The notes under the pieces were generated by a model. The model was not told where the DNA came from and ran no database searches. It worked only from the letters and a program-made list of their open reading frames with translations. The position numbers and the translations under genes are program-made. From Escherichia phage vB_EcoM_RZ, in the sequence record MW598459: DNA of 64,000 nt. The stretch is one strand, 5' to 3'. Each line of letters opens with the position of its first letter. The first letter of the stretch is position 1. Shown in pieces: positions 27,199 to 31,446 of this stretch.

Positions 27199-27945
27199 AT
27201 GATTTTATCCGGAAGAACTGTTGATGAACTCAATGAAAAAGTCCAGGCTGCCTTGGCTGATAATTGGTATTTGTTTGGTTCTACTATGGTGTTGCCGAAT
27301 ACCCCTACAGATAGCAAAGAGCGTTTTTTCCAAACTATGTCCAGCTCGGAAACTCAGATACCGGGTCCGCTTGGTCCCAAAGGAGAACCGGGTGTACCCG
27401 GACCAAAAGGAGACCCAGGTGGGGATGGAAAATCTTCTTATCAGATATGGCTTGACTTGGGAAATACAGGAACTGTTGATGATTTTTTAACTGATACAGC
27501 AGGAAAGAGGGAAAAATCCGAGGTGTTTTGGAGTGGTATAAACGTTCTATTAACTAATGGTACGACTTCAAACATAATTAGTGTTTTAAAGGGGATTCCA
27601 CCGACTGCAGGGACTCTATCTCCGTTTTTTAGAACCACTGATGATAAGTTGTGGCCATATAACCAAGACAGAAGCCTAATGTTTAAACTCAACCTTATTG
27701 GTAATTTTGCAGGAGCCTCGCAAGCTCGAAGTATAACATTAAATTTCGTTGGAACCAACGGAAACACTTATATACAGAATCGTCCGGAAAATGCTACAGA
27801 TATTTTGTCTTTTACAACGTTCTTTAGCATTGATAAAGATGGGGCAATGGCAACCAATGGTACAGCTATAACTGTTATGCCAAATGGCGGCAACTTTACA
27901 ATAACCTCCGCATTGTTAGTAGCCGAACAAACAGTGACTTCATAA
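27199..27945 (+). CDS. Collagen-like repeat protein (248 aa), hypothetical; only plus-strand gene in a minus-strand region
   Basis: Track ORF; AAGGAG RBS 7 nt upstream of ATG; seven Gly-X-Y triplets; Asn/Thr/Gly-rich C-terminal half. Confidence 0.6.
   Translation: MILSGRTVDELNEKVQAALADNWYLFGSTMVLPNTPTDSKERFFQTMSSSETQIPGPLGPKGEPGVPGPKGDPGGDGKSSYQIWLDLGNTGTVDDFLTDTAGKREKSEVFWSGINVLLTNGTTSNIISVLKGIPPTAGTLSPFFRTTDDKLWPYNQDRSLMFKLNLIGNFAGASQARSITLNFVGTNGNTYIQNRPENATDILSFTTFFSIDKDGAMATNGTAITVMPNGGNFTITSALLVAEQTVTS
27364..27429 (+). repeat. Gly-X-Y collagen-like triplet run (GPLGPKGEPGVPGPKGDPGGDG)
   Basis: Seen directly in the translation of ORF 27199..27945. Confidence 0.8.
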
Positions 27946-27967
27946 ACAAAAAAGGGCCATCCGGCCC
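27946..27967. terminator. Hairpin GGGCC-ATCC-GGCCC flanked by A-run; strong intrinsic terminator for minus-strand transcripts, possibly bidirectional
   Basis: Perfect 5-bp GC stem; T6 follows on minus strand; sits between convergent genes. Confidence 0.55.
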
Positions 27968-28163
27968 TTAGATTGCACTCCAAAAATTATGGAATCTTAT
28001 AGTATTGATAGCCCAGTTAACAAACCTGCGAGTTTGTTTGGGAGTTGGTTTACATATGTACTTATTGTTGATTCGTCTGCCAGTTTCCCGACAGACTGCT
28101 TCGAGATACCAGCGCCGACCTTTATTAGGTCTTCCGTATGATAAGAAGACCTTCATTTCTTCA

Positions 28164-29174
28164 TTAACGATAATAGGAATTGTGGTTGTCAAGGTATACC
28201 TCTTCAACAAACTTGTCCCAGAACTTCATGTCTACCTTATCAGGCATACCATTCTTAGCAGCCTGGATGGCCAGAACTTCAACTAAATCGACAGTATCTT
28301 CAAGAAGTTCTTGAACTTCTTTAAATGGTAATTCACCAGCTTTAATCAGCTTAATGATAGAGGCTTCACGCAATGGGAATACCAAGTCACCTGTTTGGTA
28401 GATTTCCATCAATTGATACCCTGCACGATAAGCATGGCTCAGTGCTTTCCAATCAATACCTTCGTTAGCTTCTGCTTTACGAGCACGTTCACCATATTCG
28501 GCGTCGAGTTTATTCAGAGATTGCTTGAGCTCGATTAATGACAGAGTAGTTTGGTACTTACGTCCGAGAACAGTATAGAACGTTTGTGGACCTGTTTTCT
28601 CATGGTTATGGAATACCCATTCACAGAACTCGTTTTCAGGGAGTCTGTGTTTGATATCTTCTACCTTAGTACGACGAAGTCTATCAGGGATTCCTTCTTG
28701 ATAATCGACCCACTGTTCAGGAATCTGGTTAACAATTGCCAGTACACCACGCAGTGCAGCCAATCGAGAACCTTTAACACCATATTTGGAAGCTTGCTTA
28801 CGGACGTACCCCAAATAGGCTTTCATGTTAGTTGTATAGAACCGCGAACGGTTGTCTTGAATAAACTTCCATACATCTGGTAAATCGGATTTGACAACCA
28901 GGTTAGCCGGGGTGTGAATCATGTCCAGAGCAACGGTTTCGCCTTCGGCTGCCAGTTTAAAGAAATATTTCAGGCTATAAAGTTCATGGTCAATATCGTC
29001 TTTTGTATTTTTGGTAGCCGTGTTATTCGTGTTCAGGTTTGTATGGTTCATCGCGGTTCCGAGCAGGATATCTCGCGGATGAGGAACAAAGATTTCTTTA
29101 AAATCAACATCAGATTCCGGAGTGCTTGTTCCATAAAGATGGCTACCGAAGTAGCCTTTCATAACTGTTCTCAT
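28164..29174 (-). CDS. Pol-beta superfamily nucleotidyltransferase-like protein, hypothetical function
   Basis: Track ORF 28164..29204; ATG at 29174 gives MRTVMKGYFGSHLYGTSTPESDVDF (GS-x9-SDVDF nucleotidyltransferase motif); family not established. Confidence 0.55.
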   Translation of the reverse strand: MRTVMKGYFGSHLYGTSTPESDVDFKEIFVPHPRDILLGTAMNHTNLNTNNTATKNTKDDIDHELYSLKYFFKLAAEGETVALDMIHTPANLVVKSDLPDVWKFIQDNRSRFYTTNMKAYLGYVRKQASKYGVKGSRLAALRGVLAIVNQIPEQWVDYQEGIPDRLRRTKVEDIKHRLPENEFCEWVFHNHEKTGPQTFYTVLGRKYQTTLSLIELKQSLNKLDAEYGERARKAEANEGIDWKALSHAYRAGYQLMEIYQTGDLVFPLREASIIKLIKAGELPFKEVQELLEDTVDLVEVLAIQAAKNGMPDKVDMKFWDKFVEEVYLDNHNSYYR

Positions 29175-29623
29175 TTTTTGTCCTCGAAGTGGATTACAGG
29201 ACACATCTTAGATTTACGAGCTTTAATGTATTGAATAACGATGTTTTCTTTAGTTTCCTTTCCTTCACGTTTGGCTAGAATACGTTGCCATTCCTTTTCT
29301 TCTTTACGTAAATCATACCATGCGTGCAAATTCATCGCACCTAATGCCAAACCAATGGATAGCGCAATAATAAGAGCTATTGCAATCAACCCTAAAACAA
29401 ACCCTAGACTCAACAGAACAGGAGTACTTAATACAAAGAAATGCTCTAATACACCAGCTCCTGCAACAGTTAATCCAAAAAGCGTACTACCTGCAACAAC
29501 AGCACAAGCAAAACAAGCCCAAACCATTTTCCAGAAGTAAGCACACAAAGAGTGTGGTCGAGAATGACGGTCATAAAAACGGTCGTGTAATTTAACGTGC
29601 CAAGAGTTTGCATTGATAATCAT
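29171..29623 (-). CDS. Hypothetical membrane protein (150 aa, about three TM helices, basic C-terminal tail)
   Basis: Track ORF; stop overlaps the nucleotidyltransferase ATG. Confidence 0.5.
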   Translation of the reverse strand: MIINANSWHVKLHDRFYDRHSRPHSLCAYFWKMVWACFACAVVAGSTLFGLTVAGAGVLEHFFVLSTPVLLSLGFVLGLIAIALIIALSIGLALGAMNLHAWYDLRKEEKEWQRILAKREGKETKENIVIQYIKARKSKMCPVIHFEDKK

Positions 29624-29633
29624 AATATTTTCC

Positions 29634-30194
29634 TTAAGAGTTCATAGTTGGGATAACAGAGTTCAGATAAGAGACTAAAACTTTTAGCTCGTCCTTAGTA
29701 AATACCACTTCATTAAAACCATCGTGTACTTGGGTAATACATAGTTGGTCACGACCATCATGCTGAACAACAGTCAGTTCAGTATTATAATTCAATTCCT
29801 CTTCGTCACCGTCAAAGGTTTCACTAGAGCGAATCACTGCATCTTGACCTGGGACTTTCCATTCAACTTCTGGCTTACATTCTTCCTGGAACAGTTTGAA
29901 AATACAATCAAAGAATTTATCAGAATCGCTAATGCTCAGACATTTTTCATCTGTTTCAATATTAAACCCACCATCGTGCTTATAAATGCGAGCACATACA
30001 TCATCGTTAATATCAAATACACCACTAAAACTACCACTAAGATATTCGTCTTTATCCAAAACCTTTAAATCATAAAGTGGTTTAATATCTTGGATAGTCA
30101 GTACGATTTTATCGTCTTCTTGACAAAGCTCAATTGCATTATTAACTACTTCAGCGGTCAGTTCGCCAAACAATTCAGTTGTTTCAATAATCAT
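29634..30194 (-). CDS. Highly acidic hypothetical protein (186 aa)
   Basis: Track ORF; very high Asp/Glu content. Confidence 0.5.
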   Translation of the reverse strand: MIIETTELFGELTAEVVNNAIELCQEDDKIVLTIQDIKPLYDLKVLDKDEYLSGSFSGVFDINDDVCARIYKHDGGFNIETDEKCLSISDSDKFFDCIFKLFQEECKPEVEWKVPGQDAVIRSSETFDGDEEELNYNTELTVVQHDGRDQLCITQVHDGFNEVVFTKDELKVLVSYLNSVIPTMNS

Positions 30195-30204
30195 TTTCTG
30201 TTCC

Positions 30205-30489
30205 TCAACGGTTATGTTTTAAAATACTATAAAGTGCTTCTACTTGGCTTGCATCCAGGTAAATAACATCATCATCTTGCTCAATGGAAATCCCACCGGT
30301 ATTACCTTTAACAAAATTACATTCGCATACTTCAACTGGGCGGTATACGTCACCAACTGGATGCTCAGGCTCCAGAACAATCACACCATTTTCAGAATTG
30401 CCGCTTGGGTCATATAACATTACATTTTCCTCACTAACCACGAAAAGAATAAACCGATTAAAATAGGACCTATAATCATTGTTGACCAA
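30205..30489 (-). CDS. Hypothetical protein (94 aa)
   Basis: Track ORF. Confidence 0.4.
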   Translation of the reverse strand: MVNNDYRSYFNRFILFVVSEENVMLYDPSGNSENGVIVLEPEHPVGDVYRPVEVCECNFVKGNTGGISIEQDDDVIYLDASQVEALYSILKHNR

Positions 30490-30511: not shown

Positions 30512-30769
30512 TCATCTCATGCTCCTGTGCCAACAATTTCTTGGTTCACGTTTAAAAATTTCATCATGCATTGATTGACAACCAACACAATATATCACAC
30601 CTTTAATCGCTTGTCTCCGCGCTTCAGGAATTTTTTCGTCGCAGTCAAAACAGAATTCAGCAGACTCCCTTTCAACTGCAACCTGTGCTCTCGCATGGGT
30701 GATAGCGGCCTGTACAACCGCTTCCATCTCTAACTGTTCAGCACCATCTTTTGCAAATCCAACAGCCAT
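30512..30769 (-). CDS. TraR/DksA-family C4 zinc-finger protein (85 aa)
   Basis: Track ORF; CFDCDEKIPEARRQAIKGVIYCVGCQ four-Cys finger typical of TraR/DksA C-terminus. Confidence 0.5.
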   Translation of the reverse strand: MAVGFAKDGAEQLEMEAVVQAAITHARAQVAVERESAEFCFDCDEKIPEARRQAIKGVIYCVGCQSMHDEIFKREPRNCWHRSMR

Positions 30770-30951
30770 TATTCTTTCAACCCATTCAGATAAGCAATTA
30801 ATTCTTCTTTAGAACTATTCAAATCACGCTTACACTGTTCTATTCCAGAATATGAATAACCTTCACAATATTCAACAGCCAGGTCATTGGATGCATTTTC
30901 AATGTGCCAAGCGAGTTTGATAATTTTCTCAATCTGTTCAGTAGTTAACAT
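30769..30951 (-). CDS. Hypothetical protein (60 aa)
   Basis: Track ORF. Confidence 0.35.
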   Translation of the reverse strand: MLTTEQIEKIIKLAWHIENASNDLAVEYCEGYSYSGIEQCKRDLNSSKEELIAYLNGLKE

Positions 30952-31208
30952 TATGCAGTCCTGTAATCAATAATTTCGTCAAGGAACATATCCAATGCTT
31001 CCAGAGCATTGCCAACTTTTGCTTCTAATTCTTTACCGCCAGATACAGATGGGGCTGCCCAAGCATAAGCTGCCATTTCATCATCTGCTTCACGAATTGC
31101 TGCAACTAATGCAGAGATTCTCTTTGCTTGTTCTAAAGTAATCATTATTCCACCACATATGATAATGAGAAAATTGCTGATGAAAGATGAGTAGCATCTT
31201 CTTCGCAC
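30951..31208 (-). CDS. Hypothetical protein (85 aa)
   Basis: Track ORF; start may be an internal Met. Confidence 0.35.
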   Translation of the reverse strand: MRRRCYSSFISNFLIIICGGIMITLEQAKRISALVAAIREADDEMAAYAWAAPSVSGGKELEAKVGNALEALDMFLDEIIDYRTA

Positions 31209-31416: not shown

Positions 31417-31446
31417 AAAAAAGGTCCACCCGAAGGCAGACCTTTT
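31417..31446 (-). terminator. Intrinsic terminator hairpin with U-run on minus strand
   Basis: Inverted repeat AAAAGGTC...GACCTTTT just downstream of the stop of ORF 31450..31833. Confidence 0.45.

Follow-up and report, generated by a model that had tools for sequence, protein, structure and literature searches.

The DNA considered here (hereafter the window) is a stretch of 64,000 nucleotides from Escherichia phage vB_EcoM_RZ (sequence record MW598459), a T4-type phage of the Dhakavirus/Gaprivervirus kind with 96% DNA identity to phage DK-13. On its minus strand, a gene for a 336-residue nucleotidyltransferase (NTase) directly follows a gene for a 150-residue membrane protein. As had been stated in a preliminary description of this DNA, the start codon of the former overlaps the stop codon of the latter. 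The corresponding features, in positions of the window, are:

28164 to 29174, minus strand: NTase gene, 336 aa, ortholog of T4 NrdC.11 (open reading frame, ORF, read from its ATG)
29171 to 29623, minus strand: membrane-protein gene, 150 aa, family phrog_944 (match at 1.2e-55)
29171 to 29174, minus strand: ATGA overlap of the membrane-gene stop TGA (29173 to 29171) and the NTase start ATG (29174 to 29172), read directly
29181 to 29185, minus strand: GAGGA, Shine-Dalgarno motif for the NTase gene, within the F-E-D codons ending the membrane gene, read directly
29631 to 29635, minus strand: AAGGA, Shine-Dalgarno motif for the membrane gene, read directly

Translated from the ATG, the NTase begins MRTVMKGYFGSHLYGTSTPESDVDF. 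An alternative GTG start located 10 codons upstream would give a product of 346 residues; the ATG was retained because homologs, including T4 NrdC.11, begin there. The tblastn searches matched the NTase to 1511 phage records and the membrane protein to 916; both ORFs are therefore genuine genes rather than chance ORFs. The two genes are co-transcribed within a nine-gene early unit and are translationally coupled at this locus.

Sequence comparisons show that the 336-residue gene is a copy of T4 nrdC.11, encoding a Pol-beta-fold NTase of the RlaP family. The protein aligns without gaps over 336 of 336 residues with T4 NrdC.11 (NP_049709), with 80% identity, and the two proteins share their motifs. 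The locus is syntenic with the tk-rI-mobD.x-nrdC.x early region of T4, the gene being placed between mobD.1 and nrdC.9/10-type genes. High identity along the whole protein and the shared position in the genome thus both assign it to the T4 NrdC.11 orthologous group. The Pfam RlaP profile (PF10127) matches residues 8-135 with 49.4 bits, as compared to a gathering cut-off of 23 (E-value 6.4e-13), and it is carried by 120 of 120 homologs among the matches listed. The protein also matches phrog_388, annotated as "nucleotidyltransferase," and an exhaustive profile search retrieved 4025 representatives of 50%-identity clusters. The enzyme family is therefore already known and annotated, and NrdC.11 is widely conserved among T4-like phages: it has been listed as a COG3541 nucleotidyltransferase since 2006 (PMC1524935) and was recently assigned to sequence-similarity cluster 5 of RlaP, PfRlaP and PaRlaP of Pseudomonas belonging to cluster 1a (2025 preprint, PMC12776372). 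Sequence and profile searches of a PDB copy that did not contain PfRlaP returned no solved relative. It should also be mentioned that many NrdC.11 orthologs in GenBank and UniRef bear the label "thioredoxin," an annotation error presumably propagated from the name of the nrdC gene.

The AlphaFold2 model of the NTase (predicted local distance difference test, pLDDT, of 83.5) is composed of a beta/alpha core of the Pol-beta type (about residues 1-150), in which the GS and DxD motifs are located, followed by an insert rich in beta strands (about 154-208) and by a helical bundle at the C-terminus (213-335). It follows the two-domain layout of the PfRlaP crystal structure, an N-terminal NTase domain and a C-terminal helical domain. 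Conservation was studied with 147 full-length representatives showing 33-52% identity to the window protein, in an alignment of 148 sequences. Two sites are of particular importance:

29103 to 29147, minus strand: codons G10-S11 to D22-x-D24, Pol-beta NTP/metal-binding motif (conservation alignment; NTP, nucleoside triphosphate)
28989 to 28991, minus strand: codon D62, putative third catalytic carboxylate, in a predicted strand at residues 61-67 (alignment and AlphaFold2 strand)

G10, S11, D22, and D24 are each conserved in at least 99% of the representatives, D60 in 94% and D84 in 98%. Position 62 is always acidic in the 148 aligned sequences (142 D and 6 E), and from the usual Pol-beta pattern we infer that D62 is the third catalytic acid. 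The view that this gene encodes a Pol-beta NTase with a GS...DxD signature, as proposed in the preliminary description, is therefore supported by the motif itself, by the RlaP match and by the predicted fold. The acidic residues on which that view depended, including a third one, are conserved in homologs. A further segment is remarkably constrained. Residues 166-247 (28434-28679) are 100% identical to those of the T4 protein, and the corresponding DNA is only 63-90% identical. Recent recombination with T4, considered as an explanation, was rejected because of this low nucleotide identity, and the combination argues for purifying selection instead. It indicates that selection on the beta-rich insert and on the first helices of the C-terminal domain is very strong.

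The upstream gene belongs to phrog_944, a family of proteins of 130-170 residues. Hydropathy analysis reveals a single continuous hydrophobic stretch, approximately from residue 30 to residue 98. In the AlphaFold2 model (pLDDT of 74.9), two long helices (26-62 and 68-119) are accompanied by short terminal strands (2-4 and 145-147). The basic tail attributed to this protein in the preliminary description is confirmed, with 14 K/R within residues 98-150, whereas the three helices are not, two being predicted. Because the N- and C-terminal regions are both K/R-rich, the two termini are probably cytoplasmic and may jointly form one small domain. Alignments A1 and A3, which cover very different phages, together with divergent loci, reveal a sharply delimited family with two motifs:

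29531 to 29623, minus strand: N-terminal motif MxINxNSWHxK ... LCxYFW, C27 invariant
29183 to 29233, minus strand: basic C-terminal motif Y[IL]KA[KR]KxKxCPxI, C141 invariant

NSWH, LCxYFW, and KAKKxKxCP, the hallmarks of the family, are invariant or nearly so in alignments A1 and A3. LCxYFW opens the first helix, the hydrophobic core varies, and the C-terminal motif is the most conserved part of the family. By itself, this last segment matches phrog_22816, and the tblastn match to the 141-residue homolog of Vibrio phage R16F is confined to it. No Pfam family was found above threshold for the membrane protein. Matches to Oleosin and ABZJ_00895 were dismissed as sub-threshold and restricted to the hydrophobic segment. 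A Foldseek search of the model against the PDB gave zero matches at E-values up to 10, and hence no membrane channel. Finally, only two matches were obtained among the 185,579 species genomes of bacteria and archaea that were scanned, so that phrog_944 is almost confined to phages. Both are on contigs of 21-24 kb from metagenome-assembled genomes of "Candidatus Saccharibacteria" (L149 and L150), which are likely mis-binned phage DNA; no repair genes are present near their phrog_944-like genes.

This raises the question of the association between the two genes, which the preliminary description had left unexplained. It was studied from the side of the enzyme at 80 NTase loci of IMG/VR, over about 4 kb upstream (less in six short loci). 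A membrane gene is present upstream on the same strand in 42 of them. The two genes abut or overlap in 13 of these 42 linked loci, with a 4-nt overlap in 11 of the 13; in the other 29, inserted genes spanning 0.4-1.8 kb lie between them, corresponding either to an HNH homing endonuclease or to one to three small soluble ORFs. Those small ORFs, found in Klebsiella and Enterobacter phages, received no family assignment and are not hydrophobic. In the remaining 38 loci, no membrane gene was found within about 4 kb upstream, or up to the contig end in the six short loci. These unlinked loci correspond to more distant NTases (less than 60% identity) and to one T4-like contig. T4 itself differs from the window in this respect: the slot upstream of nrdC.11 is occupied by mobD, a free-standing HNH homing endonuclease, and no phrog_944 gene was found in the 16 kb examined of the nrdD-tk region. 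The Tequatrovirus vB_EcoM_G50, by contrast, possesses both genes. In Aeromonas Ceceduovirus contigs, the NTase and membrane genes are at least 60 kb apart.

The membrane-NTase gene order is therefore kept in enterobacterial T4-like phages, though often interrupted. The T4 region, the 38 unlinked loci, the insertions and the separation in Ceceduoviruses show that the NTase needs no adjacent membrane gene. Since the pair can be interrupted and has been lost from T4, the two genes do not form an obligate system; what can be retained of the pairing is a conserved synteny. Adjacency within collinear T4-like genomes is only weak evidence for a functional link and, given the independence of the NTase from its neighbor, the translational coupling is best interpreted as close packing within the operon. 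The slot 3' of the membrane gene is an insertion hot spot; among T4-like phages, it immediately precedes the NTase gene (29171-29174 in the window). Examples are found in T4 (L002, 12430-13209), in L013 (5420-6223), where an HNH endonuclease is inserted between the membrane gene and the NTase, and in L008 (4410-5435). Vibrio phage R16F likewise has an HNH endonuclease 3' of its membrane gene; no NTase was detected in the vicinity.

The activity of RlaP enzymes was studied in Pseudomonas. These enzymes add one or two nucleoside monophosphates (NMPs) to an RNA 3'-OH, with a preference for Mn2+. With a mimic of cleaved tRNA, they favor the internal break over the acceptor end; they are inactive on DNA and protein, and leave E. 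coli proteins unlabeled (PMC12776372). They also partially rescue the aminoacylation of a tRNA with one anticodon-loop nucleotide missing. For the phage RlaPs, a role in RNA repair was predicted (PMC7824862). The window NTase shares with PfRlaP and PaRlaP a score above the Pfam threshold, the catalytic aspartates, the combination of an NTase and a helical domain and this predicted role. Elsewhere, genes of the NrdC.11 clade abut a PF01068 ATP-dependent ligase (five loci) or a PF09414 RNA ligase (one locus). The T4 nrdC.11-mobD.3 segment is dispensable under laboratory conditions. Both the adjacency of ligases and this dispensability fit a repair role.

By analogy with the Pseudomonas enzymes, it can be proposed that D22, D24, and D62, together with a divalent metal, would serve to move one or a few NMPs from NTPs to the 3'-OH of a broken RNA. 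The chief substrate would be a tRNA whose anticodon loop has been cleaved by host ribotoxins that both cut and excise a nucleotide, such as RloC. The loss would be undone before ligation, and the refilled end would then be resealed by phage end-healing and sealing enzymes. Within this scheme, nrdC.11 would be a dispensable counter-defence gene. The membrane gene would encode a separate two-helix inner-membrane protein, and its coupling to the NTase gene would reflect the close operon packing of conserved neighbors. Taken as a whole, this explanation, in which NrdC.11 is an RlaP-type RNA 3'-end NTase, is on balance probable in our analysis.

Several observations, however, weigh against this explanation. 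The Pfam alignment covers positions 25-143 of the 249 in the RlaP profile, that is, the NTase core only, and the protein differs from RlaP by its additional beta-rich insert. The published description of PfRlaP makes no mention of such an insert in that enzyme, and substrate choice in the NrdC.11 clade could therefore differ. NMP addition to an RNA 3'-OH is known for two Pseudomonas RlaPs only. The gene also lies outside any RtcB/RtcA operon, its neighbor being a membrane-protein gene. No RNA ligase gene adjoins it; such a neighborhood, from which the family takes its name, exists for some RlaPs only. A weak search, with the Pakpunavirus ligase and kinase as sole queries, found no RNA ligase or polynucleotide kinase in the 64-kb window. 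Finally, phrog_944 directly precedes RNA-repair enzymes in two non-T4-like phage groups, which operon packing leaves unexplained.

A rival explanation is that the same fold acts on another acceptor, for example by restoring tRNA CCA ends, tailing RNA for decay, or modifying DNA ends or a small molecule. The constrained, clade-specific insert, identical to that of T4 at the protein level over residues 166-247, would be in line with this idea, as would the five relatives adjoining a PF01068 ligase, this family including DNA ligases. Nevertheless, it appears improbable, since the characterized RlaPs reject DNA and protein and prefer an internal tRNA break over the acceptor end. As for small molecules, kanamycin and lincosamide NTases nucleotidylylate such compounds, and structures of the kanamycin-NTase type (1kny, 3c18) share with the window NTase a Pol-beta domain followed by a HEPN-like helical bundle. 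However, these small-molecule or uncharacterized enzymes show only 8-10% identity and lack the beta insert, and resistance to a small molecule would have no rationale in a lytic phage. Alternatively, the enzyme could produce a nucleotide signal or modify a host protein, as a cGAS/DncV-like synthase or decoy, or through AMPylation of the MNT type; the preliminary description leaned in this direction, with cGAS/DncV-like enzymes, minimal-NTase toxins and AMPylating enzymes as candidates. Beyond the generic GS-x10-DxD motif, the only indications are sub-threshold matches of the N-terminus to MntA (15.2 bits for a cut-off of 60, 18 residues covered) and PDC-S09. No CD-NTase, SMODS, OAS, MNT toxin/antitoxin or defence-system profile scores above threshold in Pfam, NCBIfam or PADLOC, cGAS-like structures are absent from the top fold matches, and no HEPN toxin gene is adjacent, the neighbors being the membrane protein and a DUF7279 gene. 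These candidate families are thus replaced by NrdC.11/RlaP, and the proposed roles do not agree with enzymes that extend RNA 3'-OH ends and label no E. coli protein (PMC12776372). We consider a signaling or modifying enzyme very improbable.

An NTase gene next to a membrane-protein gene also recalls the Hailong system, formed by the NTase HalB together with a channel in the membrane, HalA. By this analogy, an oligonucleotide made by the NTase would gate, or be sensed by, the membrane protein, in a phage-encoded exclusion system or a mimic silencing HalA. HalB is indeed among the best structural matches to the NTase model, but with an identity of 10-13% and scores similar to those of any Pol-beta NTase. 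The NTase is an RlaP by sequence and shows no recognizable sequence-family relationship with HalB. On the membrane side, no HalA-like effector could be recognized, as the model had no PDB match at E-values up to 10, HalA chains being among the targets if deposited. Moreover, the pair is here phage-encoded and, as illustrated by T4, the insertions and the unlinked genomes, non-obligate. This is the least probable of the explanations considered.

The surroundings of phrog_944 deserve a closer look. In the survey from the membrane side, sampled proteins were clustered at 40% identity, giving 32 clusters, nine of which are from T4-like phages (counted as one lineage) and 23 from other sources. All sampled Tevenvirinae have an RlaP gene downstream of phrog_944 on the same strand. 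Six Pseudomonas Pakpunavirus loci encode an Rnl1-type RNA ligase (PF09511, 8e-10) 11 nt downstream of phrog_944, and an AAA_33/zeta-type kinase after it. A metagenomic phage (L040) has, 9 nt downstream of phrog_944, a gene for a PNKP-type HAD phosphatase (3e-25), and then an AAA_33 kinase fragment. In another locus (L038), the next gene encodes a 343-residue protein with a Pol-beta-like GDIDVLV motif (phrog_24943), a YqeY-like gene being present nearby. The possibility that this protein is a relative of NrdC.11 was examined and discarded, profile comparison having given no specific relationship; it is therefore treated simply as a further NTase. L151 carries a gene for an ATP-dependent DNA ligase one gene upstream of phrog_944. 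About 19 of the 23 clusters outside T4-like phages are nonetheless found in unrelated contexts, comprising small unknown ORFs, a lambdoid nin-like region, ribonucleotide reductase, Nampt or a DprA-like gene. On the whole, an RNA-repair gene is the very next gene in 3 of about 24 independent phrog_944 lineages (p ~0.006, a post hoc value resting on the assumption that RNA-repair genes represent at most 1.5% of the genes of a large phage). Pseudomonas phage vB_Pae_Kat (L005, 3501-7405) shows phrog_944, the Rnl1-type ligase and the AAA_33 kinase opening a gene string that continues with ribose-phosphate pyrophosphokinase, a small ORF and nicotinamide phosphoribosyltransferase, so that RNA-repair genes stand there beside genes of nicotinamide adenine dinucleotide (NAD) salvage. 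In L057, an NAPRTase-family gene comes just after the membrane gene.

Because the family precedes ligase/kinase and phosphatase/kinase genes, a functional tie of phrog_944 to RNA-end repair can be envisaged. That phrog_944 recurs, in phages unrelated to one another, immediately upstream of genes for RNA end healing and sealing constitutes a new lead of modest strength. RNA-end repair would then be organized at the membrane, phrog_944 acting as a facultative cofactor or scaffold at the inner membrane, and its cytoplasmic N/C mini-domain and KAKKxK tail would recruit or regulate the RlaP NTase, Rnl1, PNKP or RNA substrates. The pol-beta-like gene of L038, the DNA ligase of L151 and the RlaP genes of the sampled Tevenvirinae fit this explanation. 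SPFH/Band-7 proteins have reportedly been proposed, by Burroughs and Aravind in 2016, as scaffolds of bacterial RNA-repair operons. Like these modules, phrog_944 would be a membrane-associated, non-enzymatic partner encoded beside RNA-repair enzymes. In three environmental contigs where an NrdC.11-like NTase has no phrog_944 nearby, a Band_7/SPFH protein gene directly follows it (L128, 5103-6221; L143, 5113-6003; and one further locus of the same cluster). Nevertheless, phrog_944 is a two-helix protein with no SPFH domain or detectable homology to SPFH proteins, and its link to repair concerns a minority of lineages. The unrelated contexts of most clusters, the post hoc character of the statistic, the retention of the NTase without membrane gene in the T4 region, the tolerated insertions and the unlinked genes of Ceceduoviruses all argue against such an organization. 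We therefore regard membrane-organized repair, and a real functional link between the membrane protein and RNA-end repair, as possible but rather unlikely. It may be suggested, tentatively and with a similarly low likelihood, that phrog_944 serves nucleic-acid end-healing and sealing enzymes as a cofactor or as an anchor to the membrane, and that some phages repair tRNA or other RNA at the inner membrane. Operon packing of an RlaP-type NTase with a conserved neighbor remains the explanation that we prefer.

The nine tightly packed genes of the transcription unit are bounded by two terminator-like hairpins, and the membrane gene, the NTase gene and a small DUF7279 gene are its final three members. 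The remaining features of the unit are:

31419 to 31446, minus strand: terminator-like hairpin upstream of the unit, matching the one that closes it (hairpin search)
27968 to 28156, minus strand: small DUF7279/phrog_8921 gene, directly 3' of the NTase gene and last in the unit (family matches)
27952 to 27969, minus strand: terminator-like GC hairpin and T-run closing the unit (hairpin search)

The DUF7279 gene probably starts at Met19 of the listed 80-residue ORF. Upstream in the same unit are tandem DUF7438 paralogs (30769-30951 and 30951-31208, minus strand), a DksA/TraR zinc-finger gene (30512-30769), a DUF7189 gene (30205-30489) and a gene for a y05I-like putative transcription factor (29634-30194). 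On the other side, a 248-codon ORF of the plus strand (27199-27945) encodes a protein with an Sf6-type tail-needle-knob domain (PF16532, 2.6e-32) as well as a short G-X-Y stretch resembling collagen. It is the sole sizeable plus-strand gene amid the minus-strand early genes and converges on the hairpin at 27952-27969, approximately at the position of nrdC.10 in T4.

The placement of NrdC.11 in the RlaP family, with its residues mapped, leads to a testable prediction: T4-like phages would replace the nucleotides lost to "smart" anticodon nucleases, and this restoration would precede the resealing of the tRNA by Pnkp/Rnl1. As for phrog_944, its repeated placement just ahead of genes for RNA ligase, PNKP and NTase provides a first concrete hypothesis for the family. 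If the link is false, the pair is merely two close-packed early genes and nothing unusual is left. If it is true, phrog_944 would represent, in phages, a counterpart to the SPFH/Band-7 scaffolds predicted for bacteria, perhaps directed against ribotoxins that act at the membrane or enter through it.

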